Below, piece after piece: positions 28,721 to 60,536 of a stretch of 64,000 nucleotides of DNA (positions within the stretch are counted from its first letter, which is position 1; the number at the start of each line of letters is the position of its first letter). Source of the stretch: an uncultured Chloroflexia bacterium. GTDB lineage: Bacteria > Chloroflexota > Limnocylindria > QHBO01. The position numbers were made by a program, and so were the translations under genes. The stretch spans positions 261,701 to 325,700 of the forward strand of contig CAWCXQ010000019.1 in NCBI GenBank assembly GCA_963799675.1. Direction: 5' to 3'. Below the pieces are notes generated by a model, which saw only the letters and a program-made list of their open reading frames with translations, searched no databases and was not told the origin of the DNA.

Positions 28721-29949
28721 CCGGGTCCACGCCCGCCCCGCTCGGGCTGGGACTCGTCGGTTGCGGACGCTTCGGCAGCTTCTGCCTCGCGGCGGCGGCC
28801 GATCTTCCCGGCACAGCGGTCATTGCGGTCACCGACGTCGATCCAGAGCGCGCCGCGAGCGTCGCTGCCGCGCACGAGGCTCGCGCAGTCGCCGACGTCG
28901 CGGCCCTGCTGGCCGAGGCCGGGATCGATCTCGTCATCATCGCCACGCCCCCGGTGGCGCATGGCCCGATCGCCCGCGCCGCCGCCGAAGCCGGCAAGCA
29001 CGTGTTCTGCGAGAAGCCGCTGGCCACCGATCTGGCCGCCGCGAGGGAAGTGCTCGAGGCCACCGAGCGCGGAGGAGTGCTGCTCTCGGTGGACTACGTC
29101 ATGCGCTGGAACCCGCTGTACTGGCTGGTTCATCGGCTCCAGGGGCTGCGACGGAGGGCTGGTGGCGCGCTGTTCGGGCCGTTGCAGCGGTTCGCGCTGG
29201 AGAACCTTGCCGGCGACGAGCAGGTGCCGGCCGGCCACTGGTTCTGGGATCGCAGCCTGAGCGGAGGGATCTTCGTCGAGCACGGCGTCCATTTCTTTGA
29301 CGCCGCGGCATGGCTGTTCGGCAGCCACCCCCGCCTCGTCCAGGCGCTGCAGCTGGATGACGCGGACAACCCGACCGACACGGTGATTGCCAATGCTGTG
29401 CATCCCGGCGGCGGAACCGCCAGCTACTACCACGCCTTCACCCATCCAGACGCGGCCGAGTTCCAGACGACGCTCCTCGACTGGGGCTTTGCGCACGGGG
29501 TGCTGCGCGGCTGGATCCCGGTCGAGCTCGCGCTCGAGGCCTGGACCGATGCCGAAGGCGTCGCGCTCCTCGAGACGTGCCTCGCAGACTCCGCGGCCGC
29601 CCTTGCGGTCCCGCACGTGCGCCCGTCCGGGCGCGAATCAATCGAGGTGCGCGTGACCGAGGTCGCCCAGGCTGGGACGTGGCGCGCCCGCGACGGGGCG
29701 CGCGAGGTGACGCACCGCGTGGAGGTGGGTGCCACGCTGGGCGGACCCGCCGCGAAGATAGCGATCTACCGCGAGAGCGTGCGCGCCGGCGTGGCGGACC
29801 TGGTCGAAGCGGTGCGCACCGGGGCGGCGCCGGCAATCGGCTTCGCAGACATCTACGGGAGCCTTGCCGCGGCCCTCGCGGCCCAGCAGGCCGCCGACGC
29901 GGGCAGCGCTCGTGAGCCCGAGCAACTTGAGGAGAGGACCTTCGCATGA
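28717..29949 (+). CDS. Gfo/Idh/MocA family oxidoreductase
   Basis: Intact 410-aa ORF whose start overlaps the upstream stop by 4 nt. 'LGLVGCGRFG', 'DLVIIATPPVAHGPIARAAAEAGKHVFCEKPLA'. Confidence 0.8.
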   Translation: MTGSTPAPLGLGLVGCGRFGSFCLAAAADLPGTAVIAVTDVDPERAASVAAAHEARAVADVAALLAEAGIDLVIIATPPVAHGPIARAAAEAGKHVFCEKPLATDLAAAREVLEATERGGVLLSVDYVMRWNPLYWLVHRLQGLRRRAGGALFGPLQRFALENLAGDEQVPAGHWFWDRSLSGGIFVEHGVHFFDAAAWLFGSHPRLVQALQLDDADNPTDTVIANAVHPGGGTASYYHAFTHPDAAEFQTTLLDWGFAHGVLRGWIPVELALEAWTDAEGVALLETCLADSAAALAVPHVRPSGRESIEVRVTEVAQAGTWRARDGAREVTHRVEVGATLGGPAAKIAIYRESVRAGVADLVEAVRTGAAPAIGFADIYGSLAAALAAQQAADAGSAREPEQLEERTFA

Positions 29950-32003
29950 CCACCCGATCTGTCGATCACCGCGCGCTGGCGGCGCTCGCCACGTTCTCAC
30001 TGCTGCTGGGTCTCGTCTCGGTGGGGCCCGTGCGGGCCGTACCGACACCACTCACGAACCTCGCCCACCTCGATTTCCTGGGCGACGCGGTCACGCCGCC
30101 ATCCCAGGCCGACCACACGACCTACCGCCTCGCCGAGGAGCCGAGCCTCCGCGTCCTGTGGACGTATGCCGAGCCGGACTCGACGGCTGTTGGCGGCTAT
30201 CGCCGCCTCGGCGGCGGGACCTACGACCCCGACACGAACACCTATGGCCAGGGCGCCTTCAACACCGACGACCTCACGAGGGCATCGGTGGTCTACCTCC
30301 GCCACTGGCGCCTCTTCGATGACGCCCACAGCCGCGACGCCGCTTATGGCCTGCTCCGCGCGGTGACCTACATGCAGACCATCAGTGCCGACGCGCGGAA
30401 CGGAAACTTCGTCCTCTGGATGCAGCCGGACGGCACCCTCAACCGCAGCGCGATCCCCGAGGAGAACCCCCACCCATCGGACTCGGGACCGTCGTACTGG
30501 CTGGCGCGGGGCATCTGGGCGCTGGGTGAGGGCTACGAGGCGTTTCGTGACGCGCCCGGCTTCGCCGACTTCGCCGCCTTCCTGCACGACCGCCTGGACC
30601 TCGCGCTTGACGCCCTGGATCGCCAGGTGCTCGTGAACTATGGATCGCACCGGCTGCTCGACGGCGCGCAGATGCCGGCCTGGTTGGTCGTCGACGGCGC
30701 AGATGCGAGCTCCGAGGCGGTCTACGGCCTGTCCGCCCTGGTTCGTGCCACGCCGACCGATGCGCGCGCTCGCCTCGACCTCGCGCACCTGGCCGAAGGG
30801 CTGGCCCAGATGCGCCTCTCCGACGATGCGTCGAACTGGCCGTTTGGGGCGATCCTGCCCTGGGCCGGGTCGCGATCGGACTGGCACGCCTGGGGAGACC
30901 AGATGGCCGGCGCACTTGCGACCGCCGGTGCTGCGCTCGAGGATCAGAGCTTCGTCCAGACGGCCGTGGCCGAGGTAGCGAGCTTCACGCCGCACCTCAT
31001 CGCGCAGGGTGGCGCGGAGCAGGGCTGGCTGCCGGCGCCGGCGGAGCGGGCGCAGATTGCCTACGGTGCCGATGCCACTCTCCAGAACCTGCTGCGCACC
31101 GCCGATGCCAGCGGGCTCGACGGCTTCCGCCAGCTGGCGGCCGTGCAGGCCGCGTGGTACTTCGGCAACAACCGCTCGGGCGTGTCGATGTATGACCCCG
31201 CGACCGGGGCGACGTTCGATGGCCTCGAGGCGGATGGACGGATCAACCACAACAGCGGCGCGGAGAGCACGATCCACGGGCTCCTCTCGATGCTGGCCCT
31301 GGATGCGCGCCCGGACGTGGCCATGGCCGCGACCGCGCGCAACGAACGGGTCGAGCAGCTGAGCTGGACGCTGCTCGAGGCGGAGGCCGGCGCCCTTCGT
31401 GGTGCCGCGCGGGTCGTCACCCCGGCGAGCGCATGGACCGGCGAGAGCCTGTGGAGCAACGGCAACTACGTGGAGCTGCTGCCCGGTGGCCGCGTCACGA
31501 ATTCGGCGACAGTGGCGGAGGCTGGCCGCTATCGGCTCCTGCCGGTCTTCGATCACCAGGAGGCCGCGACCCGGTCCATCGGCACCCGCCATCGCTTCGG
31601 CAACGTGCCGCTCGGGATCCTCTGGCACGGCGGCGCGGGCGCCCCGGGCGCATCGCCGACCAGCGGCTACCTCGACATCGGCAATGTTGGCTCGGATCGC
31701 ATCCTTGCCGCGGGGCCTGTGGCCATCGAATCGGCATACGTTGGCGAGGGCCCCCCGGTACGGCTCGATGCGCTCCTGCTGCAACCCGAGATCGAGCGGC
31801 TGATGCTCGCCGGGGGCGGTGGCAGCCAGGGTCTGCTGCGGAGCTGGGCGACGCAGCGGCGGCTGGCGACGGTGGCTGCCGGCGTGGGCATGACGGCCTA
31901 TGCGTACGACGCTGGTGGCCACCTCGTCGAGACCGTCACTGGTTCCGGCAGCCTTGCAGTGCCGGTCGAGCCCTACGGCTTCACCTATCTCTCGGGTTCC
32001 TGA
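29946..32003 (+). CDS. Secreted protein of unknown function, possibly (alpha/alpha)6-barrel glycoside-hydrolase-like
   Basis: Intact 685-aa ORF with a 4-nt overlap on the upstream gene. Signal peptide 'LAALATFSLLLGLVSVGPVRA'. Helix-rich core with 'SYWLARGIWALGEGY' and 'NSGAESTIHGLLSML'. The fold assignment is only an impression. Confidence 0.6.
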   Translation: MTTRSVDHRALAALATFSLLLGLVSVGPVRAVPTPLTNLAHLDFLGDAVTPPSQADHTTYRLAEEPSLRVLWTYAEPDSTAVGGYRRLGGGTYDPDTNTYGQGAFNTDDLTRASVVYLRHWRLFDDAHSRDAAYGLLRAVTYMQTISADARNGNFVLWMQPDGTLNRSAIPEENPHPSDSGPSYWLARGIWALGEGYEAFRDAPGFADFAAFLHDRLDLALDALDRQVLVNYGSHRLLDGAQMPAWLVVDGADASSEAVYGLSALVRATPTDARARLDLAHLAEGLAQMRLSDDASNWPFGAILPWAGSRSDWHAWGDQMAGALATAGAALEDQSFVQTAVAEVASFTPHLIAQGGAEQGWLPAPAERAQIAYGADATLQNLLRTADASGLDGFRQLAAVQAAWYFGNNRSGVSMYDPATGATFDGLEADGRINHNSGAESTIHGLLSMLALDARPDVAMAATARNERVEQLSWTLLEAEAGALRGAARVVTPASAWTGESLWSNGNYVELLPGGRVTNSATVAEAGRYRLLPVFDHQEAATRSIGTRHRFGNVPLGILWHGGAGAPGASPTSGYLDIGNVGSDRILAAGPVAIESAYVGEGPPVRLDALLLQPEIERLMLAGGGGSQGLLRSWATQRRLATVAAGVGMTAYAYDAGGHLVETVTGSGSLAVPVEPYGFTYLSGS

Positions 32004-33290: not shown

Positions 33291-36200
33291 ATGTACTGGG
33301 TCGGTACCAATACGTGCCCGCACCGCCTTTATCTGTACTCATTGGTGTCCTCGTTGCCCAGTGCCCGGGCTGTAGCCGTGCCTCACGGTCGGTCGTTATC
33401 TGCGCCGCGTCCATCCTTCACCGCCGCGACCCTGCTCGTGTCCGCCGGAGTCGTCATGGCCTCGCTGGCCACGCCGCTACCTGTAAGCGCGGCCACGCTC
33501 ACCTTTGCGCCGATGCAGGACGCGTACGTCTCGGCAGCCGCGAAGACCACGAACTTCGGGACCGCGACGACGCTGCAGGTGGGCAACACATCGGCCGCCC
33601 AGAAGCGCACCTACCTGATGTTCGACGTCCAAGGGCTGACCGGTGCCCCGACGAGCGCCACGCTCCAGCTGTGGGGGGTGAGCACGAGCGGAGCCGCATC
33701 GACACGGACGCTCGCCGACCCCCGGACAGCCTGGGGGGAGACGTCCATCACCAATTCCAATGCGCCCACCCTCGTCGGAGCGAATGTCACCACAGTCAAC
33801 CCAGTCGTGGCTGGCGCGTACAACACTTGGAACGTGTTGAGCTTCGTGGCCGGGAACGGGAGCTTCACGCTCGCGATCACGACCGCGGACCTGACCGGCT
33901 CCACCTTCTCGAGCCGCGAGGACGCGGCCCATCCACCCCTGCTCACGGTCGTCGGGCCCGCCGGGTCGACGGTTCCGGGTGCTCCCACGGGGGCGAGCGC
34001 CGTCGCCGGCAACACGCAGGCCACTGTCAGCTGGACGATTCCGGCGAGCGATGGCGGTAGCGCCATCACGGGCTACACGGTGACGTCCTCGCCCGGCGGC
34101 TTTACGGGTACGGCGTCTGGTCCGACCGCCACCTCCGCCACGGTCTCCGGCCTGACGAATAGCACCAGCTATACGTTCACTGTCCACGCCACCAACGGGG
34201 TTGGTCCGGGCCCCGAATCGGCTGCGTCGAACGCAGTCACACCAAGCGCGCCGACAGTGCCCGGCGCACCCACCAACGCCAGCGCCGTGGCCGGCAATAT
34301 GCAGGCGACCGTCAATTGGACCATCCCCGCCAGCAACGGCGGTAGCGCGATCACTGGCTACACGGTCACCTCCATACCGGAAGGGCACACCGGCACCGCC
34401 TCGGGCCCCACCGCCACCTCCGCAATCGTCGCCGGCATGACCAATGGCACCAGCTACACGTTTACCGTGCATGCAACCAACGGGATTGGTTCGGGTCCCG
34501 AGTCGCCCCCCTCGAACGCGGTGGTGCCCAGCACTATCACGGTTCCCGGTGCACCGACCAATGTTGGCGCGGCGCCGGGCAACGCACAGGCAACCGTCAA
34601 CTGGACGATCCCTGCCAGCGATGGCGGTAGCGCGATCACCAGCTATACCGCAACCTCCACGCCCGGGGCAAAAACGGGCATCGTGTCCGGCGCCGCTGCC
34701 ACTTCCGTGACCGTCGCCGGCCTGACCAATGGCACCAGCTACACGTTCACCGTGCACGCGACGAACGGGATCGGCAGCAGCGTGGAATCGGCTGCCTCGA
34801 GTGCGGTCACCCCCAGCACGACATTGCCCGTGATCCGACGATACCCATATCTGACCGATACGACCACGACGTCGACCTTGGTGAATTTCGCGACGTCCGC
34901 GTCCTCGCCATTGCCGACCGTGCGCTGGGGCCTCGCCTCGGGGGACTGCGTCAGTCCACCCAACACAGCGACCGCGAGCCTCGTGGCAACCCTGACCGGG
35001 ATGCCCGCCGGCACCGACACCCAATTCAAGACCAGCGTCGTCGGATTGACTGCCGCCACGGCGTACTGCTACCGCGTCTACCAATCGGGGGCGGACCTCA
35101 CCGGTGTTGCGACAACCTTCCGCACCGCCCTCGCGGCCGGCAGCAACACGCCGTTCAAGTTCGCGGTCATCGGCGACTGGGGCCAGGGGACGACGGACCA
35201 GGCGAACGTTGCCGCCCAGATCGGAGCTGCCCACCCGGACCTCCTGATCAGCACCGGCGACAACGACTATCCCAATGGAAGCCAGGCGGAGTACGGCGAT
35301 CTGACCGGCGGCACGGTCTTCCCAGCCCAGTATCTGCCCGCGATGGGCAGGGGCCTCCCGATGTTCATGGTCCAGGGAAACCACGGCTTCACGACAAACA
35401 CGCCCTACATCCAGAACTTTCCCCAGGACGTCGTCACGGCAGCGTCGGGCGGCAAGTTCGTGGCCGAGGCGTACTCCAATATCCCCGGATCATCCAATGC
35501 GACGTACGCCAGCGCGTGGTTCGCGTTCACGTGGGGGCGGGCGCGGTTCTACGTGCTCGAGGCCGCATGGGCGGATGCCAATGGCGCATACAGCGGGGAC
35601 TATCAGGCGCACTGGAACACGGGCAACATGGGCTGCACGCCCGCCTGTGGGGCCGAGATGACGTGGCTGCAGAACGACCTCGCGGCCAACGCGTCGGTCC
35701 CGCTGAAGTTCGCCTTCTTCCATTACCCTCTGCACGTCGATAGTCCGAGCGAGGTCTCCGACACCAACCTGAGCGGGCCATCGCCCAAGCTCGAGGGCGT
35801 GCTCGCGGCGGCCAAAGTGGCAATCGTCTTCAACGGTCACGCCCACCAGTACCAGCGGAACTTCGCGCAGATCGCCGGGTCCCCTATGGTCAGCTACGTC
35901 ACGGGCGGGGGCGGAGCGTCCCTCGGCTCTATCGGTACGTGCACCGTGGTAGTAGACGCCTATGGGATCGCTCCCGGCAAGGCCTGCGGCACCGCGTCCG
36001 TGCCGCCGAACAACACCTATGTCTTCCATTACCTGCTCGTATCGGTGAATGGGAACCAGGTAACGGTGACTCCCACCGATGAGATGGGACGCACGTTCGA
36101 CGTGCAGACCTACACCATCGGACCGCTGGCACCCACCGGGCTGAGCGCCACCGCCGGCGACAACTCGGTCGCGCTGAGCTGGACCGCGTCGGCGGGTGCC

Positions 36201-38501
36201 ACCAGCTACAACGTCAAGCGCGCCACCCTCAGTGGTGGCCCATACACCACCATCAGCACTCCGGGCGCGGTGACCGGCACCACCTATACCGATAGCACCG
36301 CCACCAACGGGACGACCTACTACTACGTGGTCAGCGCGGTCGGCGACGGAGGTGAGGGCGCCGACTCGACCCAGGTCTCCGCGACGCCTCAGCCGCCGGC
36401 ACCTGGCGCCCCGACCAACCTCACCCCAACCGCCGGCGACAACTCGGTCGCGCTGAGCTGGACCGCGTCGGCGGGTGCCACCAGCTACAACGTCAAGCGC
36501 GCCACCCTCAGTGGTGGCCCATACACCACCATCAGCACTCCGGGCGCGGTGACCGGCACCACCTATACCGATAGCACCGCCACCAACGGGACGACCTACT
36601 ACTACGTGGTCAGCGCGGTCGGCGACGGAGGTGAGGGCGCCGACTCGACCCAGGTCTCCGCGACGCCTCAGCCGCCGGCACCTGGCGCCCCGACCAACCT
36701 CACCCCAACCGCCGGCGACAACTCGGTCGCGCTGAGCTGGACCGCGTCGGCGGGTGCCACCAGCTACAACGTCAAGCGCGCCACCCTCAGTGGTGGCCCA
36801 TACACCACCATCAGCACTCCGGGCGCGGTGACCGGCACCACCTATACCGATAGCACCGCCACCAACGGGACGACCTACTACTACGTGGTCAGCGCGGTCG
36901 GCGACGGAGGTGAGGGCGCCGACTCGACCCAGGTCTCCGCGACGCCTCAGCCGCCGGCACCTGGCGCCCCGACCAACCTCACCCCAACCGCCGGCGACAA
37001 CTCGGTCGCGCTGAGCTGGACCGCGTCGGCGGGTGCCACCAGCTACAACGTCAAGCGCGCCACCCTCAGTGGTGGCCCATACACCACCATCAGCACTCCG
37101 GGCGCGGTGACCGGCACCACCTATACCGATAGCACCGCCACCAACGGGACGACCTACTACTACGTGGTCAGCGCGGTCGGCGACGGAGGTGAGGGCGCCG
37201 ACTCGACCCAGGTCTCCGCGACGCCTCAGCCGCCGGCACCTGGCGCCCCGACCAACCTCACCCCAACCGCCGGCGACAACTCGGTCGCGCTGAGCTGGAC
37301 CGCGTCGGCGGGTGCCACCAGCTACAACGTCAAGCGCGCCACCCTCAGTGGTGGCCCATACACCACCATCAGCACTCCGGGCGCGGTGACCGGCACCACC
37401 TATACCGATAGCACCGCCACCAACGGGACGACCTACTACTACGTGGTCAGCGCGGTCGGCGACGGAGGTGAGGGCGCCGACTCGACCCAGGTCTCCGCGA
37501 CGCCTCAGCCGCCGGCACCTGGCGCCCCGACCAACCTCACCCCAACCGCCGGCGACAACTCGGTCGCGCTGAGCTGGACCGCGTCGGCGGGTGCCACCAG
37601 CTACAACGTCAAGCGCGCCACCCTCAGTGGTGGCCCATACACCACCATCAGCACTCCGGGCGCGGTGACCGGCACCACCTATACCGATAGCACCGCCACC
37701 AACGGGACGACCTACTACTACGTGGTCAGCGCGGTCGGCGACGGAGGTGAGGGCGCCGACTCGACCCAGGTCTCCGCGACGCCGCTGTCCGCCGCCGCCC
37801 CGGTCTCCTATCCGGCGGTCATCCGCAACTCGGTCTGGTACCTGCGCGACAGCAACACCAGCGCGCCGGGCACGATCACCAGCTTCGCCTACGGCAACCC
37901 GACCGACACCCCGATCTTCGGCGACTGGAATAACGACGGCGTGGCGACGCCGGGTGTGGTGCGGGTGACCGGCGGCTCGCTGACCTGGTACCTGCGCAAC
38001 ACCAATAGCGCCGGCGCACCCGACACCATCTTCGCCTGGGGCGCGGCCACCGACAAGCCGCTGGTCGGCGACTGGGACGGCAACGGCACTGACACGCCGG
38101 GCCTGCTGCGCGCCAGCAACCACTGGATCCTGTCCAACTCGGGCGACGGCACGAGCGGGATCGTCGACTTCTTCTGGGGCAGCGGCGCCGCCAACGAGAA
38201 GCCGATCGTGGGCGACTGGGACGGGAACGGCAGCGACACCCCCGGCTTGGTGCGGGCCGGCAACTGGTGGATCCTCAAAACCAGCAACGACGCGAGCAGC
38301 ACCGTCACCGACTTCTTCTGGGGCACCACCAGCGAGACCGCCTGGGTGGTGGGCGACTGGAACGGCGACGGCAGCGACAACCCCGGCATCCTGCGTGGCA
38401 ACTGGTGGCTGCTGCGCGACTCCAACACCGGCGGCGGGGCCACCGACCGCGACTTCTTCTTCGGCCTCAACAGCGACACCTTCCGCGTGTGGGCCAAGTG
38501 A
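33291..38501 (+). CDS. Giant secreted surface protein A: signal peptide, DNRLRE-like domain, 3 FN3, purple-acid-phosphatase-like metallophosphoesterase, 6 identical FN3, shared C-terminal 5-repeat module
   Basis: Uninterrupted 1736-aa ORF; the likelier start is GTG 33378, giving signal 'LLVSAGVVMASLATPLPVSA|ATL'. 'FAPMQDAYV..KRTYLMFDV..SATLQLW..AWGETSITNSNAP' (DNRLRE-like). 'FAVIGDWGQG', 'STGDNDYP', 'QGNHGF', 'NGHAHQYQRN' (metallophosphoesterase). FN3 'SWTASAGATSYNVKRAT..GTTYYYVVSAV'. Confidence 0.9.
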   Translation: MYWVGTNTCPHRLYLYSLVSSLPSARAVAVPHGRSLSAPRPSFTAATLLVSAGVVMASLATPLPVSAATLTFAPMQDAYVSAAAKTTNFGTATTLQVGNTSAAQKRTYLMFDVQGLTGAPTSATLQLWGVSTSGAASTRTLADPRTAWGETSITNSNAPTLVGANVTTVNPVVAGAYNTWNVLSFVAGNGSFTLAITTADLTGSTFSSREDAAHPPLLTVVGPAGSTVPGAPTGASAVAGNTQATVSWTIPASDGGSAITGYTVTSSPGGFTGTASGPTATSATVSGLTNSTSYTFTVHATNGVGPGPESAASNAVTPSAPTVPGAPTNASAVAGNMQATVNWTIPASNGGSAITGYTVTSIPEGHTGTASGPTATSAIVAGMTNGTSYTFTVHATNGIGSGPESPPSNAVVPSTITVPGAPTNVGAAPGNAQATVNWTIPASDGGSAITSYTATSTPGAKTGIVSGAAATSVTVAGLTNGTSYTFTVHATNGIGSSVESAASSAVTPSTTLPVIRRYPYLTDTTTTSTLVNFATSASSPLPTVRWGLASGDCVSPPNTATASLVATLTGMPAGTDTQFKTSVVGLTAATAYCYRVYQSGADLTGVATTFRTALAAGSNTPFKFAVIGDWGQGTTDQANVAAQIGAAHPDLLISTGDNDYPNGSQAEYGDLTGGTVFPAQYLPAMGRGLPMFMVQGNHGFTTNTPYIQNFPQDVVTAASGGKFVAEAYSNIPGSSNATYASAWFAFTWGRARFYVLEAAWADANGAYSGDYQAHWNTGNMGCTPACGAEMTWLQNDLAANASVPLKFAFFHYPLHVDSPSEVSDTNLSGPSPKLEGVLAAAKVAIVFNGHAHQYQRNFAQIAGSPMVSYVTGGGGASLGSIGTCTVVVDAYGIAPGKACGTASVPPNNTYVFHYLLVSVNGNQVTVTPTDEMGRTFDVQTYTIGPLAPTGLSATAGDNSVALSWTASAGATSYNVKRATLSGGPYTTISTPGAVTGTTYTDSTATNGTTYYYVVSAVGDGGEGADSTQVSATPQPPAPGAPTNLTPTAGDNSVALSWTASAGATSYNVKRATLSGGPYTTISTPGAVTGTTYTDSTATNGTTYYYVVSAVGDGGEGADSTQVSATPQPPAPGAPTNLTPTAGDNSVALSWTASAGATSYNVKRATLSGGPYTTISTPGAVTGTTYTDSTATNGTTYYYVVSAVGDGGEGADSTQVSATPQPPAPGAPTNLTPTAGDNSVALSWTASAGATSYNVKRATLSGGPYTTISTPGAVTGTTYTDSTATNGTTYYYVVSAVGDGGEGADSTQVSATPQPPAPGAPTNLTPTAGDNSVALSWTASAGATSYNVKRATLSGGPYTTISTPGAVTGTTYTDSTATNGTTYYYVVSAVGDGGEGADSTQVSATPQPPAPGAPTNLTPTAGDNSVALSWTASAGATSYNVKRATLSGGPYTTISTPGAVTGTTYTDSTATNGTTYYYVVSAVGDGGEGADSTQVSATPLSAAAPVSYPAVIRNSVWYLRDSNTSAPGTITSFAYGNPTDTPIFGDWNNDGVATPGVVRVTGGSLTWYLRNTNSAGAPDTIFAWGAATDKPLVGDWDGNGTDTPGLLRASNHWILSNSGDGTSGIVDFFWGSGAANEKPIVGDWDGNGSDTPGLVRAGNWWILKTSNDASSTVTDFFWGTTSETAWVVGDWNGDGSDNPGILRGNWWLLRDSNTGGGATDRDFFFGLNSDTFRVWAK
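36124..37784 (+). repeat. Tandem coding repeat, ~6 copies x 279 bp (93 aa FN3 units)
   Basis: The anchor string gccggcgacaactcggtc recurs at 36153, 36432, 36711 (all checked, spacing exactly 279), and by the same period at 36990, 37269, 37548. Copies 1 and 2 were compared base by base and are identical from ~36150. Translated copies 2-6 are identical. Confidence 0.9.
37785..38501 (+). repeat. Shared C-terminal cassette, copy 1 (ends ...RVWAK*)
   Basis: 717 bp from 'ctgtccgccgccgccccggtctcc' to the stop. It reads identically to the copies at 42287, 44896, 52575 and (from tggtacctgcgcgac) 50664. Confidence 0.9.
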
Positions 38502-39014
38502 GCGTGCAGGTCGATCTCGGGACTCGCGGACGAGGCAACCTTGTGATTCCGAGCGAGCCACGCGGCGACGCACGGAGCGGGTGCGGGTTATCGCCCTGCC
38601 CCCCGGGGTGCCGCACCGTTGCTCTAATGCAACGGTATGGTGAAATAGACTCTAGTGCTTTTGGCATGAGTCTGATATGGTTCGGTGCTCAAAAGTGCGC
38701 GGAGCGTGGTGGCGCGCAGTGCCCAGTGGCCACCGCGACGGCCGGGACTGGATGCCTGATGACGGTCTCCTCTCGACCTCGTGTTCAGGAGTCCGGGATG
38801 TGCCCAGCCGGTCGCCATTCATTGCTACGCGTCGCCCTGCTCGCTGACACTCGAAGTGTCTTAGCAATTCGGCCACGGTCTTGGCCGGGCCCTGCGCCTC
38901 TCGCGCGGGGCGAGGGCACGAACTTCCACATGCCGTCCCAACGAGACTGATTGCGAGCCAGGGCTGGTCGAGTCGGTCTCTTTTTTCTGTCCTCAACCAT
39001 CCGAGGCTAAAGAA

Positions 39015-42000
39015 ATGATCTCCCGCCAACTGGGTGCCGCGCAGAGAGCGGGGACCTTCGTCGCGATAGGCGCACTTCTCGCAACAACGGCGGCCGCCGT
39101 TGCCCCTGGGCGGGTGCTTGCAGCAGCCCCAAATCCTCCCACGGTCAATGCGCCAACTAATGGAGCGACTGGCCAAAGCACTTCCCCGACCCTCAGCGTG
39201 CACGTCTCGGACCCAGACAACAATTCGATGACGGTCACATTTTCGGCCGCCCATACCTCAGCGGCGTGTTCGTCCAGATCGCCCAAAAAACGAGCGTCGC
39301 GTCGAATTCGAATACGACGGCCACATGGTCCACCTTGGGCGCTGGTCAACTGCACCAGTGGTACGTCACCGTCTCCGACGGCACGTCCACAATCACAGGG
39401 CCGACGTGGACATTCCGCACAACGGCGAGCGCCGATCCGGTATTTGTCGGAGTCGGCGACATCGCAGCGTGCACCAACACGAATGACACGGACACAGGCA
39501 ACGTCATCAGCGGCGTCGACGGCAATATCTTTACTGTCGGCGATAACGTCTACCCGGACGGAACGGCGGCTGACTTCACGAACTGCTACGCGCCGACCCC
39601 ATGGGGTAGCAGTGCCATCAAGTCGCGGACCCGCCCGATTCCCGGCAACCACGATTGGAACACCGGCAATCTGAACGGGTACACCGGATATTTCGGCGCC
39701 AATGCGACCGATGCGAATGGCAAGAGTTACTACAGCTACAACATCGCTGGCAGCAACTGGCACGTCGTTAATCTTGATAGCGAATGCGCACTCGTCCCAG
39801 GTGGGTGTGCGGCCGGTTCCCCACAGGAGATCTGGCTCAAGGCAGACCTGCAGGCGAATCTGTCCAAGAACGTAATCGCTTTGTTCCACAAGCCTCGGTT
39901 CAGCAGCGCTGGCACCAACCTCACCGACCTTCAGGCGTTCGTGGACGACATGTATACGGCGCGCGTGGACATCGCGATGGACGGTCATGACCACGTGTAT
40001 GAACGGATTGCGCAGCTAAATGCCACCGGAACCCCGGATCCGGGCCGTGGGATCCGCTACTTCACAGTTGGAATGGGTGGCGACAGCCACCAGGGATTCG
40101 GGACACCGATCGCCGGCAGCGAGGTTCGCGACGCAAGTTCCTACGGGATTCTGAAGCTGACACTTCACGCCACAACGTATGATTGGAAGTACCTACCGGT
40201 CGCCGGCAGCACATTTACCGACTCAGGTACCGCATCCGTCGTCGCCGCCGGCGTCAACCAGGCGCCGGTCGCGGTCGCCGACAGCTACAGCACGCCGCTC
40301 AACACGGCCAAGGTCGTGGCGGCGCCCGGCGTCCTCGCCAACGACACCGATGCCGACGGCAATCCGCTGACCGCGATCCTTAACGCCAACGTGACCCACG
40401 GCAGCCTGAGCCTGGCCGCCAATGGTGGTTTCACCTATACCCCGACATCCGGCTACACCGGGCCGGACTCGTTTACCTACCACGCCAACGACGGCACCCT
40501 CAACTCGAACACCGTGACGGTCAGCCTGACGGTCGGCGGAGCGGTCACCAATCAGGCCCTCCAGCTCAACGGCTCGAGCCAGTACGCGACCCTGGGTTCC
40601 ACCAGCCAGCTGCGCAGCGCGACCTTCACCGTCGAACTGTGGTTCAAGCGGACCGGGGCCGGGGTCGGCACCAACACCGGCACCGGCGGCATCCCCGATG
40701 CCATCCCGCTCATCACCAAGGGCCGAGCGGAGGGCGAGACCCCGGCTGCCGATATCAACTACTTCCTGGGCATCGACGCCAGCAGCGGCCAGCTGGTGGC
40801 CGACTTCGAGGAGGGCGCGGGCGGCGCGAGCCCCAGCCTCAACCACCCGATCACGGCGGCCACCGTGGTGACCCTGAACGTGTGGCACCACGCCGCGGCG
40901 ACCTATGACGGCTCGACCTGGAACCTCTATCTCGACGGGGTGCTCGACGGCACCCTGGCCGTCGGGGTCACCCATCCGGCCAACGCCGCGACGGCCGTCC
41001 TGACCACGGTCGGCACCGCCGATAACACGGCCGGCGTGGTCGACGGCTTCTTCGCCGGCGTGGTCGACGAGGCCCGCATCTGGAGCGTGGCCCGGACGGC
41101 AACCCAGATCAACGCCACCCGGAACGTTCAGGTCACCACCGCCCAGACCAACCTGCTGGGCGTCTGGAACATGAACGAGGGCAGCGGCACGACCCTCGCC
41201 GACAACTCGGGCAACGGCATCACCGGCACGGCCGTCGGGGCGCCGACCTGGGTGGCCGGCTTCCCGCTGTCCGGCAACCAGGCGCCGGTCGCGGTCGCCG
41301 ACAGCTACAGCACGCCGCTCAACACGGCCAAGGTCGTGGCGGCGCCCGGCGTCCTCGCCAACGACACCGATGCCGACGGCAATCCGCTGACCGCGATCCT
41401 TAACGCCAACGTGACCCACGGCAGCCTGAGCCTGGCCGCCAATGGTGGTTTCACCTATACCCCGACATCCGGCTACACCGGGCCGGACTCGTTTACCTAC
41501 CACGCCAACGACGGCACCCTCAACTCGAACACCGTGACGGTCAGCCTGACGGTCGGCGGAGCGGTCACCAATCAGGCCCTCCAGCTCAACGGCTCGAGCC
41601 AGTACGCGACCCTGGGTTCCACCAGCCAGCTGCGCAGCGCGACCTTCACCGTCGAACTGTGGTTCAAGCGGACCGGGGCCGGGGTCGGCACCAACACCGG
41701 CACCGGCGGCATCCCCGATGCCATCCCGCTCATCACCAAGGGCCGAGCGGAGGGCGAGACCCCGGCTGCCGATATCAACTACTTCCTGGGCATCGACGCC
41801 AGCAGCGGCCAGCTGGTGGCCGACTTCGAGGAGGGCGCGGGCGGCGCGAGCCCCAGCCTCAACCACCCGATCACGGCGGCCACCGTGGTGACCCTGAACG
41901 TGTGGCACCACGCCGCGGCGACCTATGACGGCTCGACCTGGAACCTCTATCTCGACGGGGTGCTCGACGGCACCCTGGCCGTCGGGGTCACCCATCCGGC

Positions 42001-43003
42001 CAACGCCGCGACGGCCGTCCTGACCACGGTCGGCACCGCCGATAACACGGCCGGCGTGGTCGACGGCTTCTTCGCCGGCGTGGTCGACGAGGCCCGCATC
42101 TGGAGCGTGGCCCGGACGGCAACCCAGATCAACGCCACCCGGAACGTTCAGGTCACCACCGCCCAGACCAACCTGCTGGGCGTCTGGAACATGAACGAGG
42201 GCAGCGGCACGACCCTCGCCGACAACTCGGGCAACGGCATCACCGGCACGGCCGTCGGGGCGCCGACCTGGGTGGCCGGCTTCCCGCTGTCCGCCGCCGC
42301 CCCGGTCTCCTATCCGGCGGTCATCCGCAACTCGGTCTGGTACCTGCGCGACAGCAACACCAGCGCGCCGGGCACGATCACCAGCTTCGCCTACGGCAAC
42401 CCGACCGACACCCCGATCTTCGGCGACTGGAATAACGACGGCGTGGCGACGCCGGGTGTGGTGCGGGTGACCGGCGGCTCGCTGACCTGGTACCTGCGCA
42501 ACACCAATAGCGCCGGCGCACCCGACACCATCTTCGCCTGGGGCGCGGCCACCGACAAGCCGCTGGTCGGCGACTGGGACGGCAACGGCACTGACACGCC
42601 GGGCCTGCTGCGCGCCAGCAACCACTGGATCCTGTCCAACTCGGGCGACGGCACGAGCGGGATCGTCGACTTCTTCTGGGGCAGCGGCGCCGCCAACGAG
42701 AAGCCGATCGTGGGCGACTGGGACGGGAACGGCAGCGACACCCCCGGCTTGGTGCGGGCCGGCAACTGGTGGATCCTCAAAACCAGCAACGACGCGAGCA
42801 GCACCGTCACCGACTTCTTCTGGGGCACCACCAGCGAGACCGCCTGGGTGGTGGGCGACTGGAACGGCGACGGCAGCGACAACCCCGGCATCCTGCGTGG
42901 CAACTGGTGGCTGCTGCGCGACTCCAACACCGGCGGCGGGGCCACCGACCGCGACTTCTTCTTCGGCCTCAACAGCGACACCTTCCGCGTGTGGGCGCAG
43001 TGA
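39015..43003 (+). CDS. Giant secreted surface protein B: signal peptide, Ig-like domain, calcineurin-like metallophosphoesterase, 2 x (cadherin-like + LamG), shared C-terminal module; single frame break in a T-run at 39240-39243
   Basis: RBS GAGG before ATG 39015. Signal 'FVAIGALLATTAAAVAPGRVLAA'. 'PTLSVHVSDPDNNSMTVTF' continues as 'GRPYLSGVFVQIAQ..QWYVTVSDGTSTITGPTWTFRT' in the -1 frame (ORF 39266-43003, 1245 aa). 'GVGDIAAC', 'GDNVYPDG', 'PGNHDW', 'DGHDHVYER'. Confidence 0.85.
40255..42292 (+). repeat. Tandem coding repeat, 2 x 1020 bp (340 aa: cadherin-like domain + LamG domain)
   Basis: 'ggcgccggtcgcggtcgccgacagc' occurs at 40261 and 41281. The two 340-aa translations are identical. Confidence 0.9.
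42287..43003 (+). repeat. Shared C-terminal cassette, copy 2 (ends ...RVWAQ*)
   Basis: Same 717-bp sequence as 37785-38501 except for the last two sense codons (gcg cag versus gcc aag). Confidence 0.9.
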
Positions 43004-43032
43004 GCAATAACAATCAAGAGGGAGGCACTGTG

Positions 43033-45612
43033 ATGTTCGTCGGCAGTCGTTCTCGCCGCACGGACGCGGCGATGCGGGGGAGCACGCTTGCCGTGACCCT
43101 CGCGTTGTTGGCCACTCTGCTTGCGGTTGTCGCGCCAACCGCCGTCTCGGCCGCCGGCCAGCAGGCCCTCCAGCTCAACGGCTCGAGCCAGTACGCGACC
43201 CTGGGTTCCACCAGCCAGCTGCGCAGCGCGACCTTCACCGTCGAACTGTGGTTCAAGCGGACCGGGGCCGGGGTCGGCACCAACACCGGCACCGGCGGCA
43301 TCCCCGATGCCATCCCGCTCATCACCAAGGGCCGAGCGGAGGGCGAGACCCCGGCTGCCGATATCAACTACTTCCTGGGCATCGACGCCAGCAGCGGCCA
43401 GCTGGTGGCCGACTTCGAGGAGGGCGCGGGCGGCGCGAGCCCCAGCCTCAACCACCCGATCACGGCGGCCACCGTGGTGACCCTGAACGTGTGGCACCAC
43501 GCCGCGGCGACCTATGACGGCTCGACCTGGAACCTCTATCTCGACGGGGTGCTCGACGGCACCCTGGCCGTCGGGGTCACCCATCCGGCCAACGCCGCGA
43601 CGGCCGTCCTGACCACGGTCGGCACCGCCGATAACACGGCCGGCGTGGTCGACGGCTTCTTCGCCGGCGTGGTCGACGAGGCCCGCATCTGGAGCGTGGC
43701 CCGGACGGCAACCCAGATCAACGCCACCCGGAACGTTCAGGTCACCACCGCCCAGACCAACCTGCTGGGCGTCTGGAACATGAACGAGGGCAGCGGCACG
43801 ACCCTCGCCGACAACTCGGGCAACGGCATCACCGGCACGGCCGTCGGGGCGCCGACCTGGGTGGCCGGCTTCCCGCTGTCCGGCAACCAGGCGCCGGTCG
43901 CGGTCGCCGACAGCTACAGCACGCCGCTCAACACGGCCAAGGTCGTGGCGGCGCCCGGCGTCCTCGCCAACGACACCGATGCCGACGGCAATCCGCTGAC
44001 CGCGATCCTTAACGCCAACGTGACCCACGGCAGCCTGAGCCTGGCCGCCAATGGTGGTTTCACCTATACCCCGACATCCGGCTACACCGGGCCGGACTCG
44101 TTTACCTACCACGCCAACGACGGCACCCTCAACTCGAACACCGTGACGGTCAGCCTGACGGTCGGCGGAGCGGTCACCAATCAGGCCCTCCAGCTCAACG
44201 GCTCGAGCCAGTACGCGACCCTGGGTTCCACCAGCCAGCTGCGCAGCGCGACCTTCACCGTCGAACTGTGGTTCAAGCGGACCGGGGCCGGGGTCGGCAC
44301 CAACACCGGCACCGGCGGCATCCCCGATGCCATCCCGCTCATCACCAAGGGCCGAGCGGAGGGCGAGACCCCGGCTGCCGATATCAACTACTTCCTGGGC
44401 ATCGACGCCAGCAGCGGCCAGCTGGTGGCCGACTTCGAGGAGGGCGCGGGCGGCGCGAGCCCCAGCCTCAACCACCCGATCACGGCGGCCACCGTGGTGA
44501 CCCTGAACGTGTGGCACCACGCCGCGGCGACCTATGACGGCTCGACCTGGAACCTCTATCTCGACGGGGTGCTCGACGGCACCCTGGCCGTCGGGGTCAC
44601 CCATCCGGCCAACGCCGCGACGGCCGTCCTGACCACGGTCGGCACCGCCGATAACACGGCCGGCGTGGTCGACGGCTTCTTCGCCGGCGTGGTCGACGAG
44701 GCCCGCATCTGGAGCGTGGCCCGGACGGCAACCCAGATCAACGCCACCCGGAACGTTCAGGTCACCACCGCCCAGACCAACCTGCTGGGCGTCTGGAACA
44801 TGAACGAGGGCAGCGGCACGACCCTCGCCGACAACTCGGGCAACGGCATCACCGGCACGGCCGTCGGGGCGCCGACCTGGGTGGCCGGCTTCCCGCTGTC
44901 CGCCGCCGCCCCGGTCTCCTATCCGGCGGTCATCCGCAACTCGGTCTGGTACCTGCGCGACAGCAACACCAGCGCGCCGGGCACGATCACCAGCTTCGCC
45001 TACGGCAACCCGACCGACACCCCGATCTTCGGCGACTGGAATAACGACGGCGTGGCGACGCCGGGTGTGGTGCGGGTGACCGGCGGCTCGCTGACCTGGT
45101 ACCTGCGCAACACCAATAGCGCCGGCGCACCCGACACCATCTTCGCCTGGGGCGCGGCCACCGACAAGCCGCTGGTCGGCGACTGGGACGGCAACGGCAC
45201 TGACACGCCGGGCCTGCTGCGCGCCAGCAACCACTGGATCCTGTCCAACTCGGGCGACGGCACGAGCGGGATCGTCGACTTCTTCTGGGGCAGCGGCGCC
45301 GCCAACGAGAAGCCGATCGTGGGCGACTGGGACGGGAACGGCAGCGACACCCCCGGCTTGGTGCGGGCCGGCAACTGGTGGATCCTCAAAACCAGCAACG
45401 ACGCGAGCAGCACCGTCACCGACTTCTTCTGGGGCACCACCAGCGAGACCGCCTGGGTGGTGGGCGACTGGAACGGCGACGGCAGCGACAACCCCGGCAT
45501 CCTGCGTGGCAACTGGTGGCTGCTGCGCGACTCCAACACCGGCGGCGGGGCCACCGACCGCGACTTCTTCTTCGGCCTCAACAGCGACACCTTCCGCGTG
45601 TGGGCCAAGTGA
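43033..45612 (+). CDS. Secreted surface protein C: signal peptide, LamG, cadherin-like, LamG, shared C-terminal module
   Basis: RBS GAGGGAGG 8 nt before ATG 43033, which lies 29 nt after the gene B stop. Signal 'LAVTLALLATLLAVVAPTAVSAA'. 859 aa, uninterrupted. Confidence 0.9.
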   Translation: MFVGSRSRRTDAAMRGSTLAVTLALLATLLAVVAPTAVSAAGQQALQLNGSSQYATLGSTSQLRSATFTVELWFKRTGAGVGTNTGTGGIPDAIPLITKGRAEGETPAADINYFLGIDASSGQLVADFEEGAGGASPSLNHPITAATVVTLNVWHHAAATYDGSTWNLYLDGVLDGTLAVGVTHPANAATAVLTTVGTADNTAGVVDGFFAGVVDEARIWSVARTATQINATRNVQVTTAQTNLLGVWNMNEGSGTTLADNSGNGITGTAVGAPTWVAGFPLSGNQAPVAVADSYSTPLNTAKVVAAPGVLANDTDADGNPLTAILNANVTHGSLSLAANGGFTYTPTSGYTGPDSFTYHANDGTLNSNTVTVSLTVGGAVTNQALQLNGSSQYATLGSTSQLRSATFTVELWFKRTGAGVGTNTGTGGIPDAIPLITKGRAEGETPAADINYFLGIDASSGQLVADFEEGAGGASPSLNHPITAATVVTLNVWHHAAATYDGSTWNLYLDGVLDGTLAVGVTHPANAATAVLTTVGTADNTAGVVDGFFAGVVDEARIWSVARTATQINATRNVQVTTAQTNLLGVWNMNEGSGTTLADNSGNGITGTAVGAPTWVAGFPLSAAAPVSYPAVIRNSVWYLRDSNTSAPGTITSFAYGNPTDTPIFGDWNNDGVATPGVVRVTGGSLTWYLRNTNSAGAPDTIFAWGAATDKPLVGDWDGNGTDTPGLLRASNHWILSNSGDGTSGIVDFFWGSGAANEKPIVGDWDGNGSDTPGLVRAGNWWILKTSNDASSTVTDFFWGTTSETAWVVGDWNGDGSDNPGILRGNWWLLRDSNTGGGATDRDFFFGLNSDTFRVWAK
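43162..45612 (+). repeat. 2451-bp duplicate of 40553-43003 (LamG + cadherin-like + LamG + cassette)
   Basis: The offset is 2609 bp at both ends. The translations are identical apart from the terminal AK versus AQ. Confidence 0.85.
44896..45612 (+). repeat. Shared C-terminal cassette, copy 3 (ends ...RVWAK*)
   Basis: Same 717-bp sequence as copy 1, including gcc aag tga. Confidence 0.9.
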
Positions 45613-48600
45613 GAGACCGGAGAGATGGGCGGCGGGGCGGCGCTGCTCGCCGCCGTCCTCGGGCGGCTCGGGGCGGCGGTCGGACCAGCACCCGCGGAAG
45701 CAGTGGACCGAGCGGCAATATCGCGCTCTCGCTGCCGCCGGTTGTAAGGCGGGTGTCGTTTCTGTGATCGGAAACGGGACTCGTTTCGTCCGTCGATCGC
45801 TTGGAATCCCGCGACGTCGCCGCATATCGGGAAGGAGACTCTGATGTTCCTCCGCAGTCGTTGTCGCCGCGCGGGCGCGGCGATGCGGGGGGCCACGCTT
45901 GCCGTGAGCTTCGCGCTTGTGGCCACGTTGTTCTCCGGGGTCGCGGGCCGCCCGCTATTGGCCGCCGGCCAGCAGGCGCTCCAGCTGAACGGCTCGAGCC
46001 AGTACGCGACCCTCGGCAACACCAGTCAGCTGCGCAGCGCGACGTTCACGGTCGAGTTGTGGTTCAAGCGGACCGGGGCCGGGCTCGGGACGAGCACCGG
46101 TAGCGGCGGCATCGCGAGCGCGATCCCCTTGATCACGAAGGGTCGGGCAGACGGTGAGTCTCCGGCAGCCGATATCAACTACTTCCTGGGCATCGACGCG
46201 ACGAGCGGAAAGCTCGTGGGGGACTTCGAGGAGGGCGCCAGCGGGGCCACACCCAGCGCGAACCACCCCATCACCGGTACGGCCGTCATCGCCGTCGGTG
46301 CGACATGGCACCACGCGGCCGCGACCTATGATGGTTCGACCTGGAGCCTCTATCTCGATGGCGTCCTTGACGGCACCCTGGCCGTTGGCAGGCCAGCCAA
46401 CGCAGCGACAGCAACGCTCACGTCTCTGGGGAGTGCGCTCACCAATGCAGGTGTCGCGGCCGGCTTCTTCGCGGGCGCTGTCGACGAGGTCCGGATCTGG
46501 AGCGTCGCGCGCACCCTGGCCCAGATCAATGCGACCCGGAACACCGAGATCACGACTCCCCAGACCAACCTGCTGGGCGTTTGGAACCTCAACGAGGGCA
46601 GTGGCACGAGCCTTGCCGACAACTCGGGCAACGCCATCACCGGCACCGCGGTCGGTGTGCCGACCCCGCCGACCTGGACGCCGGGCTTCGATGCCAACCA
46701 GCCTCCGGTCGCCGTGGCCGACAGCTACACGACCGCACAGGACACGGCCAAAGTCGTGGCCGCGCCGGGCGTCCTTGCCAACGACACCGATGCGGAATCC
46801 AACCCGCTGACCGCCTTGCTGGTCGCAAACGTCACCCACGGGACCCTCAGTCTCGCCTCCAACGGCGGCTTCACGTACACGCCGACGACGACCTACAACG
46901 GGCCGGACTCGTTTACCTACAAGGCAAACGACGGCACCAGCGATTCGAATACGGTCACTGTCTCACTTGGCGTTGGGAACCTCGGCATGCAGCTGAACGG
47001 AACCAGCCAGTACGCCACCTTGGGGACGACAGCTCAACTGCGCAGTGCGACGTTCACCGTCGAGCTGTGGTTCAAGCGAACCGGTGCCGGGGTCGGCACG
47101 GGTACCGGGACCGGCGGAATCACTAGCGCGATTCCTTTGATCACGAAGGGACGAATGGAGGCCGAGACCGCCGCCGCAGACGTGAACTATTTCCTGGGCA
47201 TCGACGCCAGCAGCGGCAAGCTCGTGGCCGACTTCGAGGAAGGCCAGACCGGGGCCACCCCGAGCGCGAACCATCCGATCACCGCCACCACCGTGGTGAC
47301 GCAGAACGTCTGGCACCATGCCGCGGCGACGTATGACGGGACCACCTGGAACCTCTACCTTGACGGCATCCTCGACGGCACCCTCGCCGTCGGCGCCACC
47401 CATCCAGCCAATGCCGCGACCGCGGTGCTGACCACGGTCGGCAGCTCGCTCGACACCACCGGCACGCCCGCCGGCTTCTTCGCCGGCGCCGCCGACGAGG
47501 TCCGGATCTGGAGCGTCGCCCGCACGCTCAGCCAGATCAACGCCACCCGGACCGTCGAGGTCACCAGCGCCCAGGCCAACCTCCTCGGCGTCTGGAACCT
47601 CAACGAGGGCGGCGGCACCAGCCTGGCCGATAAGTCGGGCAACGGGATCACCGGGACCGCGGTCGGCTCGCCGATCCGGGTCGCAGGCTTCGTCGTGCCG
47701 GACAGCACGCCACCCGCGGCGCCCACTGGTCTGGTCGCGACGCCCACTCTCACCGGGATCGACCTGTCCTGGAACGCGAACTCCGAGTCCGATCTGGCGG
47801 GCTATAACATCTATCGCGGCACAACACCTGGCGTCGGGACGGGTGGCACACCCATAAATGGCGCTCTTCTCACCAGTCCCACGTACACCGACGGCTCCCT
47901 GGCTTCGAGCAGCCTGACCTCGGGCCAGACCTACTACTACGTCGTGACCGCGGTCGACACGTCCGCCAACAAGTCGGCTGCGTCCAACGAAGACTCCGCT
48001 GTCGCACCAGCGGTCAACCGTGGCCTTCAACTCAACGGCACAAGCCAATACGTGACGTTCGGCGCAGCGCCCGGCCTCGACGCTTCGAGCTTCACGATCG
48101 AGCTTTGGTTTTACCAGACTGGCGCCGGCACCCCTACCAGCACTGGCAGTACCGGTCTCAACGCCGTCCCGCTGGTGACAAAGGGGCGCGCTGAGGCCGA
48201 AGCCTCGAACGTCGACATGAACTGGTTCCTGGGGTCGATGCCGCGACGAACAAGCTCGCCGCGGACTTCGAGGAGGGCGCATCGGGGACCACGCCGGGCG
48301 CGAACCACCCGATCATCGGCAGCACGATCGTAACGATGAACGCGTGGCACCACGCTGCTGCAACGTATAACGGCACGGCCTGGAGGCTCTACCTCGATGG
48401 TGCTGCCGACGGGACCCTGACCGTCGGGGAGCCTGCCCGTTCTGACAGCATCCAGCACGCGGCGCTCGGCACGGCCATGACCTCCGCCGGCGCCGCCGCG
48501 GGCTTCTTCGCGGGGGTCGTCGATGAGGCGCGGGTCTGGAGCGTTGCCCGAACGCGCGCGCAGATCCAGGCGACCAAGAACACCGAGCTGACCGGCGCGC

Positions 48601-48732
48601 AGACGACCTGAGGGCCGCTGGGGCCTCAACGAGGGCAGCGGCACGATCGCGGCCGATACGTCCACGAACGGTCGAAACGGAACGGTGGTTGCCGCGCCAA
48701 CGCGCGTCGCGGGCTTCGTGCCGCCTCCTGCC

Positions 48733-50616: not shown

Positions 50617-50663
50617 CGCCCACCGAGCCCGTGAGCCTGCCGGCCGTGATCCGCGACGGGGCC

Positions 50664-53285: not shown

Positions 53286-53371
53286 GCGTGCAGGTCGATC
53301 TCGGGACTCGCGGACGAGGCAACCTTGTGATTCAGGGCGAGCCACGCAGCAGTTCCGGGTGGTCTTTCTGG

Positions 53372-60454: not shown

Positions 60455-60536
60455 TCGTTGACGCCGTGCAACACCTCTGATCTACGAGTACTTGCTCCTC
60501 CCTGACTTTATGCCTATGATGCGTTCCTGGTCGGCA

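Follow-up and report, generated by a model that had tools for sequence, protein, structure and literature searches.

The stretch of 64,000 nucleotides analysed here (the window, contig CAWCXQ010000019.1 of an uncultured Chloroflexia bacterium) carries five genes, g1 to g5, whose products end in the same C-terminal module, hereafter called the tail, which is predicted to fold as a five-bladed β-propeller. We observe five tail copies in the window, all on the + strand and each ending at a stop codon, with a DNA identity of 98.8–100%. The first copy (37785–38501, +) makes up the C-terminal 238 aa, stop codon included, of g1 (33291–38501, +), an open reading frame (ORF) of 1736 aa for a secreted protein with a signal-like N-terminus, a CBM96 domain, three FN3 domains, a purple-acid-phosphatase-like metallophosphoesterase, and six near-identical FN3 domains ahead of the tail. 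Gene g2 (39015–43003, +) encodes a metallophosphoesterase and two cassettes of cadherin-like/Big_9 and Laminin_G_3 domains, followed by the second copy (42287–43003, +; 99.7% DNA identity). In g3 (about 43030–45612, +), Laminin_G_3 and Big_9 domains precede the third copy (44896–45612, +; 100%), and in g4 (45844–51329, +), of which protein P0001 is the 50226–51329 part, a Laminin_G_3 domain and seven tandem Big_9 units precede the fourth copy (50640–51329, +; 98.8%). The last carrier, g5 (51369–53285, +), consists of a separate propeller domain without Pfam assignment, in its N-terminal 400 aa, and the fifth copy (52573–53285, +; 99.7%).

An initial annotation of this DNA, made from the letters and translations, had placed a five-repeat tail at 37785–38501; translation of this segment on the + strand closes at the stop codon and reproduces the quoted sequence exactly. 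When the copies are compared column by column, their identity sets in at a sharp boundary some 720 nt ahead of the stop and extends to the last codon (K or Q), beyond which only copies 1 and 5 remain identical in the 3' flank, over about 65 nt after the stop (38502–38566 versus 53286–53350), and a terminator/promoter scan of this common flank returned nothing, including no terminator-like hairpin. The same annotation spoke of five proteins, which is right for the number of tail copies but not for the reading frames, as g2 and g4 are frame-broken in this assembly. In g2, the ORF with the signal peptide (from 39015) and the main ORF (from 39266) are brought into one frame only by shifting 1 nt at a run of TTTT close to 39240. 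The frame breaks of g4 (48732–50614) coincide with the seven tandem Big_9 units, which alternate between 269 and 270 nt with one or two gaps each. Either long-read errors (homopolymer or indel) or true pseudogenisation could account for these frame changes. None of the tail carriers shows an LPXTG motif near its C-terminus, the proteins ending in ...TFRVWA[KQ], and their sole hydrophobic segment is N-terminal and signal-like, in agreement with the annotated lack of an LPXTG signal or transmembrane anchor. The suggestion that the tail is therefore the only candidate for retaining these proteins does not hold, since these proteins also contain CBM96, Laminin_G_3, cadherin-like, and FN3 domains.

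The structure of the tail was predicted with AlphaFold2 from an alignment of 120 homologues. The model is confident (mean predicted local distance difference test score, pLDDT, 96.1; predicted template modelling score, pTM, 0.91) and all-beta, with no helix and 20 strands that form five blades of four strands each in a closed domain. In the register of the blades, strand A corresponds to P-x-V-G-D-W, strand B to T-x-G-V-x-R, strand C to W-x-L-R-N, and strand D to x-x-F-x-[YW]-G, with D-W-[DN]-G-[DN]-G-x-D-T in the A-B loop and S-N-x-x-G-x-A-D in the C-D loop. The N-terminal segment SYPAVIR (37806–37826, +), previously taken for a linker before the repeats, is the first strand of the model (E8-14) and belongs to the fold; in the register alignment it is of strand-B type and matches the segments TPGVVR, TPGLLR, TPGLVR, and NPGILR of the other repeats. 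It is followed on the + strand by repeat 1 (37827–37979; NSVWYLR...PGVVRVTGGS), with the Dx[DN]xDG-type loop DWNNDG at 37923–37949, repeat 2 (37980–38117), with the calcium-blade loop DWDGNGTDT at 38070–38096, repeat 3 (38118–38261), with DWDGNGSDT at 38214–38240, repeat 4 (38262–38399), with DWNGDGSDN at 38355–38381, and repeat 5 (38400–38498), which stops after strand A (TFRVWA) and has no calcium loop. From the register alignment and the first strand of the model, we infer a Velcro closure in which this C-terminal strand A joins the N-terminal strands B–D and SYPAVIR completes repeat 5. Many homologues (P0014, P0015, P0027, P0038, P0088, P0118, and others) end at ...GDW[DN]G or ...xVVW-x, right after strand A and thus where TFRVWA[KQ] ends too, in support of a conserved domain boundary. 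Other homologues end after strand B (...GVVR), and such differing ends suggest alternative circular permutations of the closure.

In an in-register alignment, the five repeats, of about 46 aa each, share 31–54% pairwise protein identity, and similarity at the DNA level is still detectable between repeats 2/3 and 3/4 (75% over 237 nt, E 9e-22). Set against the 98.8–100% DNA identity of the copies, this indicates that the repeats are old and the copies young, as had been proposed. The argument that the GDWxGxG motif has four codings can be kept in part: the codings differ, but mostly through amino-acid changes (N/D), with only one synonymous change.

The A-B loops DWNNDG, DWDGNG, DWDGNG, and DWNGDG give four of the five blades a calcium-blade motif of the Dx[DN]xDG type. 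No other feature of the family is as well conserved as this loop: among 113 homologues less than 60% identical to the query, D1 is conserved at 97–100%, D/N at positions 3 and 5 at about 97% and 95%, respectively, G6 at 83–95%, and T9 at 79–95%. The family consensus, W.LRNSN..G.AD..F.YG, also contains the conserved G and the aromatic-G pair. The Dx[DN]xDG motif binds Ca2+ at the blade tips of integrin, PVL, the rhamnogalacturonan lyase RGL11, and PilY1 (PMC3123361). In the A-B loop it is also the hallmark of a VCBS supercluster defined by Pereira and Lupas, which comprises PVL, TcB, AUDH, integrins, tachylectins, and several uncharacterised groups of prokaryotic secreted proteins (PMC8023676).

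Profile searches give a graded picture. The Pfam family FG-GAP_3 (PF13517) reaches the tail at E 0.0097 and 16.9 bits, below its cut-off of 26.9, and no NCBIfam family, the VCBS model TIGR01965 included, matches it at E ≤ 10. Nevertheless, FG-GAP_3 matches 28 of 121 relatives at E ≤ 1e-3 (best 8.7e-8) and 12 of 88 library representatives at E ≤ 1e-4. The FG-GAP/VCBS likeness noted at first is thus borne out by the relatives and by the loops of four blades, even if the tail itself stays under the threshold. The blades of PF13517 and integrin have the same register as those of the tail, with FG, strand A, DxDxDG, and strand B in succession, but they carry D at position 9 and build seven- or eight-bladed propellers, whereas the tail has an acidic position 8, T9, and five blades. 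On the basis of the model and these motifs, we assign the tail to five-bladed β-propellers of the FG-GAP/VCBS calcium-blade type, which would bind Ca2+. The dockerin type I model (PF00404) does not match the tail at E ≤ 1, and the dockerin analogy was ruled out by this missing profile match together with the all-beta fold. None of the known wall-binding Pfam families (LysM, SH3b, SLH, PG_binding, CW_binding, LGFP, GW) is found in the tail or in the relatives scanned.

The tail belongs to a very large family. A scan of 1.84 billion representatives (50%-identity clusters) returned 17,427 clusters at E ≤ 1e-3, 10,607 at E ≤ 1e-10, and 1,746 at E ≤ 1e-30. With more than 17,000 clusters, and with its place in the already described VCBS supercluster (PMC8023676), the family makes the label "novel", first given to this domain, an overstatement. 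In species-representative genomes, relatives occur mostly in Actinomycetota, especially Acidimicrobiia, and further in Chloroflexota, Acidobacteriota, Planctomycetota, Saccharimonadales, and a few archaeal metagenome-assembled genomes (MAGs). The closest relative, at 64% identity, comes from an uncultured Chloroflexia MAG.

Counting a module as C-terminal when it lies within 20 residues of the protein C-terminus, we find this position in 99 of the 120 best matches (11 more consist of the module alone), in 71 of 86 complete ORFs from genomic loci, and in 103 of 137 library representatives, where 19 modules are internal and 15 N-terminal. The preference for C-termini expected from the initial annotation is therefore present in all three samples, at 75–83%, which goes against the generic internal propeller without preferred position that had been named as a refutation. 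Some family proteins contain two to eight modules in tandem, and others the module alone behind a signal peptide. Recurrent partners include wall- and glycan-active enzymes, namely CHAP, Peptidase_M23, Amidase_2, Peptidase_M15_4, SpoIID, and an Rpf-like transglycosylase, as well as polysaccharide deacetylase, GH44, and sulfatase; PKD, DUF11, and cadherin-like domains are also found. Judged by its domain architectures, this appears to be a promiscuous extracellular targeting or binding module. Around the module genes of 80 loci, no conserved partner gene recurs within ±3 kb, the largest neighbour cluster (11 of 80 loci) being a low-complexity ORF.

A similar view of the C-terminal position is obtained from the N-terminal domain of g5 (51369–52568, 400 aa), which belongs to no Pfam or NCBIfam family but is widespread and strongly conserved, with 649 homologues across phyla at 50–70% identity. 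It is a predicted propeller (pLDDT 92.7), larger than the tail, and most resembles PLL/PHL lectins, GH145, PL42, and sialidase-type enzymes; invariant positions are occupied by W, D, E, and P, and almost invariant ones by H and R. In its homologues, the C-terminal slot is occupied by CBM96, Laminin_G_3, or PKD in various phyla and by a type IX secretion system (T9SS) sorting domain in Bacteroidota, a tail-type module being present in only one of 119. Because the slot varies in this way, the tail can be seen as filling a place held elsewhere by carbohydrate-binding or surface-attachment modules. The Bacteroidota example, together with the strong C-terminal preference, would also suit a C-terminal secretion or sorting domain, like the T9SS C-terminal domain or PEP-CTERM, that is read by an export or attachment machinery. 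We consider this highly improbable: with 231 aa and a full propeller the tail is far larger than known sorting tags, 17–25% of the modules are located N-terminally or internally, some proteins are tandem arrays or secreted modules on their own, the family extends to phyla with unrelated secretion systems, archaea included, and no conserved machinery gene lies nearby in the 80 loci.

The structural neighbours point towards sugar binding. In a Foldseek search against the PDB, the best match of the tail model is UmbA4 of S. coelicolor in complex with S. griseus teichuronic acid (9oee_A; E 3.6e-7, probability 1.0, TMq 0.55), followed by ITFG2 of KICSTOR, by the fungal N-acetylglucosamine (GlcNAc) lectins AAL2, PAL, and PVL, and then by the Photorhabdus lectins PLL/PHL; further matches are generic propellers such as DDB1, BBS9, and BamB. 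The Foldseek comparison suggested at the outset thus places lectin propellers best, with a binder of a cell-wall glycopolymer at the top. Among predicted viral structures (BFVD), no match was obtained at E ≤ 0.001, the best one being an uncharacterised Edafosvirus protein (E 1.1e-3).

The C-terminal domain of UmbA4 is a six-bladed propeller lectin built from degenerate repeats, with a conserved core, Ca2+-type loops, and variable pockets, and it binds teichuronic acid in canonical inter-blade sites (PMC13274773). The tail resembles it in its C-terminal position, degenerate repeats, and Ca2+-type loops, and differs by having five blades instead of six and no HMMER-detectable sequence similarity. 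Twelve families of five-bladed propeller lectins (5BPF-1 to 5BPF-12), as well as Laminin_G_3, serve as alternative UmbA lectin domains in Streptomyces (PMC13274773). An UmbA lectin domain follows a trypsin-like domain and is encoded together with umbB/umbC; the scanned proteins of the window contain no trypsin-like domain, and a trypsin domain occurs in only two of 88 family members. P0144 and P0135 combine a trypsin domain containing GDSGG with two or three propeller modules, in a manner reminiscent of the UmbA spoke, although the protease is apparently active. We did not equate the family with UmbA on the strength of these fusions, two members with an apparently active trypsin being insufficient.

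PVL, AAL2, and PAL (PDB 2bwr, 4tqj, 5mb4) share with the tail the VCBS/FG-GAP-like blades and Dx[DN]xDG loops (Foldseek probability 1.0, E 3e-4 to 1e-3, at 10–14% identity), and lectins of this type bind sugars in pockets between blades (PMC8023676, PMC3123361). They are, in contrast, seven-bladed and stand-alone cytoplasmic or secreted lectins, whereas the tail is five-bladed and appended to other domains. The pocket motif of the fungal lectins is described as GW in loop D-A'; the putative counterpart in the tail is F-x-[YW]-G. Tachylectin-2 (1tl2) has the five blades of the tail, with repeats of about 47 aa, Velcro closure, and multivalent binding of GlcNAc and N-acetylgalactosamine (PMC8023676, PMC4735018), but tachylectins do not possess the Asp-rich A-B loop (PMC8023676) that the tail has, and 1tl2 is absent from the 50 best Foldseek matches. 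Finally, the classical wall-binding modules (LysM, SH3b, SLH, PG_binding_1, CW_binding, LGFP, and GW) are, like the tail, built from repeats, usually C-terminal, and attached to CHAP, M23, amidase, or SpoIID enzymes in proteins without LPXTG; they have a different fold and no sequence match to the tail, whose own binding is putative.

The second place of ITFG2 among the matches raises another explanation, namely that the tail is a Ca2+-dependent protein docking or adhesion domain, integrin- or dockerin-like in function, which attaches its carriers to a common protein scaffold, an S-layer, or a partner cell. In integrin and ITFG2, protein contacts are made by FG-GAP propellers; conservation of the calcium loops would be consistent with such a role, and one common receptor would suit identical tails. 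We regard this explanation as improbable, given that there is neither a dockerin/cohesin signal nor any fold but an all-beta one, that no neighbour gene recurs within ±3 kb at the 80 loci, and that lectins make up the majority of the named structural neighbours with the best scores. A dedicated protein partner is also hard to reconcile with the spread of the family over many phyla whose envelopes differ strongly.

Taking the model and the analogy with known lectins together, we regard the tail as probably a multivalent lectin-type propeller, stabilised by Ca2+, whose function would be to hold secreted enzymes and adhesins on a glycopolymer of repeating units. Repeats, loop motif, predicted fold, C-terminal preference, and fusion partners are observed, whereas we infer Ca2+ binding and sugar binding as well as the nature of the ligand and the choice between retention in cis, on the producer, and targeting in trans. 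The carriers would be exported by their N-terminal signal peptide, and their last ~231 residues would then form five four-stranded blades, with the pairing of SYPAVIR and TFRVWA closing the ring. Four A-B loops (DW[DN]G[DN]G-x-D-T) would bind Ca2+ on one face and stiffen the domain, and sugar units may be bound on the opposite face and in the grooves between blades, by the variable B-C and D-A' loops beside the conserved aromatic residue of F-x-[YW]-G. Up to five similar sites could provide avidity for a repeating glycopolymer, so that the N-terminal enzyme and adhesin domains would be held on a polysaccharide-rich surface. Because the tails are identical, all five carriers would reach the same ligand. 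The wall/glycan direction proposed in the initial annotation fits the peptidoglycan-hydrolase fusions and the lectin-propeller neighbours.

Several observations weigh against this function or against a narrow form of it. Solved lectins are matched with TM-scores of only about 0.5, no TM-score exceeding ~0.55, and the fold alone is no proof of sugar binding, as the non-lectin propellers ITFG2, DDB1, BBS9, and BamB also match. A sequence search of all PDB chains gave no match, either with the single sequence (E ≤ 10) or with the family profile (E ≤ 1); this, together with the TM-scores, leaves the five-bladed calcium-blade form without a close experimental representative. Glycan binding by the carriers could also be explained without the tail, since CBM96 and Laminin_G_3 are already present in them. 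Many partners of the module are unrelated to the wall, such as S8 and M10 proteases, CAP, cytochromes, and Kelch. Relatives at 39–41% identity lie on contigs of Methanoperedenaceae, Methanoregula, and Woesearchaeota MAGs (loci L072, L074, and L080). They result either from horizontal transfer or from binning contamination; archaea have no peptidoglycan and, if real, these relatives argue against a ligand restricted to it. Phages often encode the wall-binding domains of lysins, and a tblastn search of 50,697 phage genomes with the tail and a CHAP-fused relative gave no match, by which a phage-lysin binding domain was ruled out. The non-wall partners, the archaeal members, and the absence from phages weigh against a strictly peptidoglycan-specific role.

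The near-identity of the tails has to be seen in the context of the locus. The region from 33 to 54 kb (33000–54000) is a mosaic of near-identical cassettes: g1 contains six FN3 units of 279 bp at 36150–37794 (99.4–99.8% identity), a cadherin and LamG duplication of 1020 bp lies at 40252–42293, a block of 2452 bp, which is the 3' part of g3, is common to g2 and g3 (99.9% identical), and the seven Big_9 units measure about 270 bp each. This locus is evolving through segmental duplications of very recent date and through the shuffling of domains, and such events can explain the identical tails, since the locus is built of near-identical cassettes. Gene conversion is a possible source but is not required, and an actively maintained identity, as first proposed, is not needed either. 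Assembly collapse was rejected as a cause because each copy has a context of its own, the 5' boundaries are sharp but not the same, and the last codons differ. A related Chloroflexia MAG has two tails on one contig that are 95% identical to each other and 65% identical to the tail of the window, and within-locus tail pairs from other genomes (n = 11) show a median identity of 61%, compared to 41% between genomes. This is some evidence for a lineage-specific homogenisation of tails within genomes.

A cluster for Wzy-type polysaccharide synthesis (56254–62525, +) lies 3 kb downstream of the tail genes and includes a Wzy_C-like membrane protein (56254–58053, +; weak match), two GT2 glycosyltransferase genes (58047–59051 and 59444–60454, +), and a priming polyprenyl glycosylphosphotransferase (61707–62525, +; TIGR03025, E 1.8e-86). 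Upstream of the tail block, the window contains a GH130 gene, a solute-binding protein, and a GFO oxidoreductase, indicative of sugar utilisation. The block is flanked by two long ORFs without Pfam or NCBIfam match, at 29946–32003 (685 aa) and 54216–55730 (504 aa). The most plausible ligand of the tail would be a cell-envelope or sheath polysaccharide of the producer, and the product of the Wzy-type cluster could, from its position, be this ligand. The identical tails, the homogenisation within genomes, and the adjacent glycan cluster weakly favour such a self-ligand, bound in cis.

The upstream genes fit a rival explanation, the tail being a module similar to carbohydrate-binding modules that is aimed at foreign polysaccharides or at the walls of other microbes, where it concentrates secreted hydrolases, phosphatases, and adhesins. 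The CHAP, M23, and amidase partners could attack competitors, GH44, sulfatase, and deacetylases are also among the partners, and many family members are stand-alone secreted propellers. Moreover, UmbA4, the closest characterised analogue, recognises the wall glycopolymer of other species (PMC13274773). We consider this targeting of foreign glycans possible but lean away from it, since identical tails on five carriers and their homogenisation fit a single self-ligand better, the lectins of Umb being diversified within a genome instead of homogenised (PMC13274773); in addition, the Wzy-type cluster is adjacent and the module is absent from phage lysins.

The tethering of secreted proteins to a glycopolymer can be extended to a more specific proposal, that the tail is the protein half of a non-covalent surface display in monoderm-type Chloroflexota and Actinomycetota, comparable to the pairing of S-layer homology domains with secondary cell wall polymers (SLH-SCWP) or to choline-binding proteins. 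It would bind the lineage-specific envelope polysaccharide of its own cell, made by the Wzy-type cluster, be kept identical by gene conversion, and co-diverge with the glycan. We put this forward as a speculation that is rather unlikely to be right in full.

The superfamily, the lectin kind of β-propeller, and five-bladed lectin propellers on actinobacterial secreted proteins are already known, and the finding opens no new category of biology. The very large five-bladed calcium-blade family that recurs as a C-terminal appendage of wall hydrolases is not represented in the curated resources queried. If the proposed function is right, it is a very common targeting domain of wall hydrolases and exo-enzymes that is un-annotated and structurally unsolved. 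Thousands of secreted proteins now labelled "hypothetical" would be better annotated if it were curated as a family of its own, and definition of its ligand would give a new wall-binding scaffold for lysin engineering. If true, the proposed function would also help explain how large adhesins and phosphatases are retained at the surface without LPXTG-type anchors.

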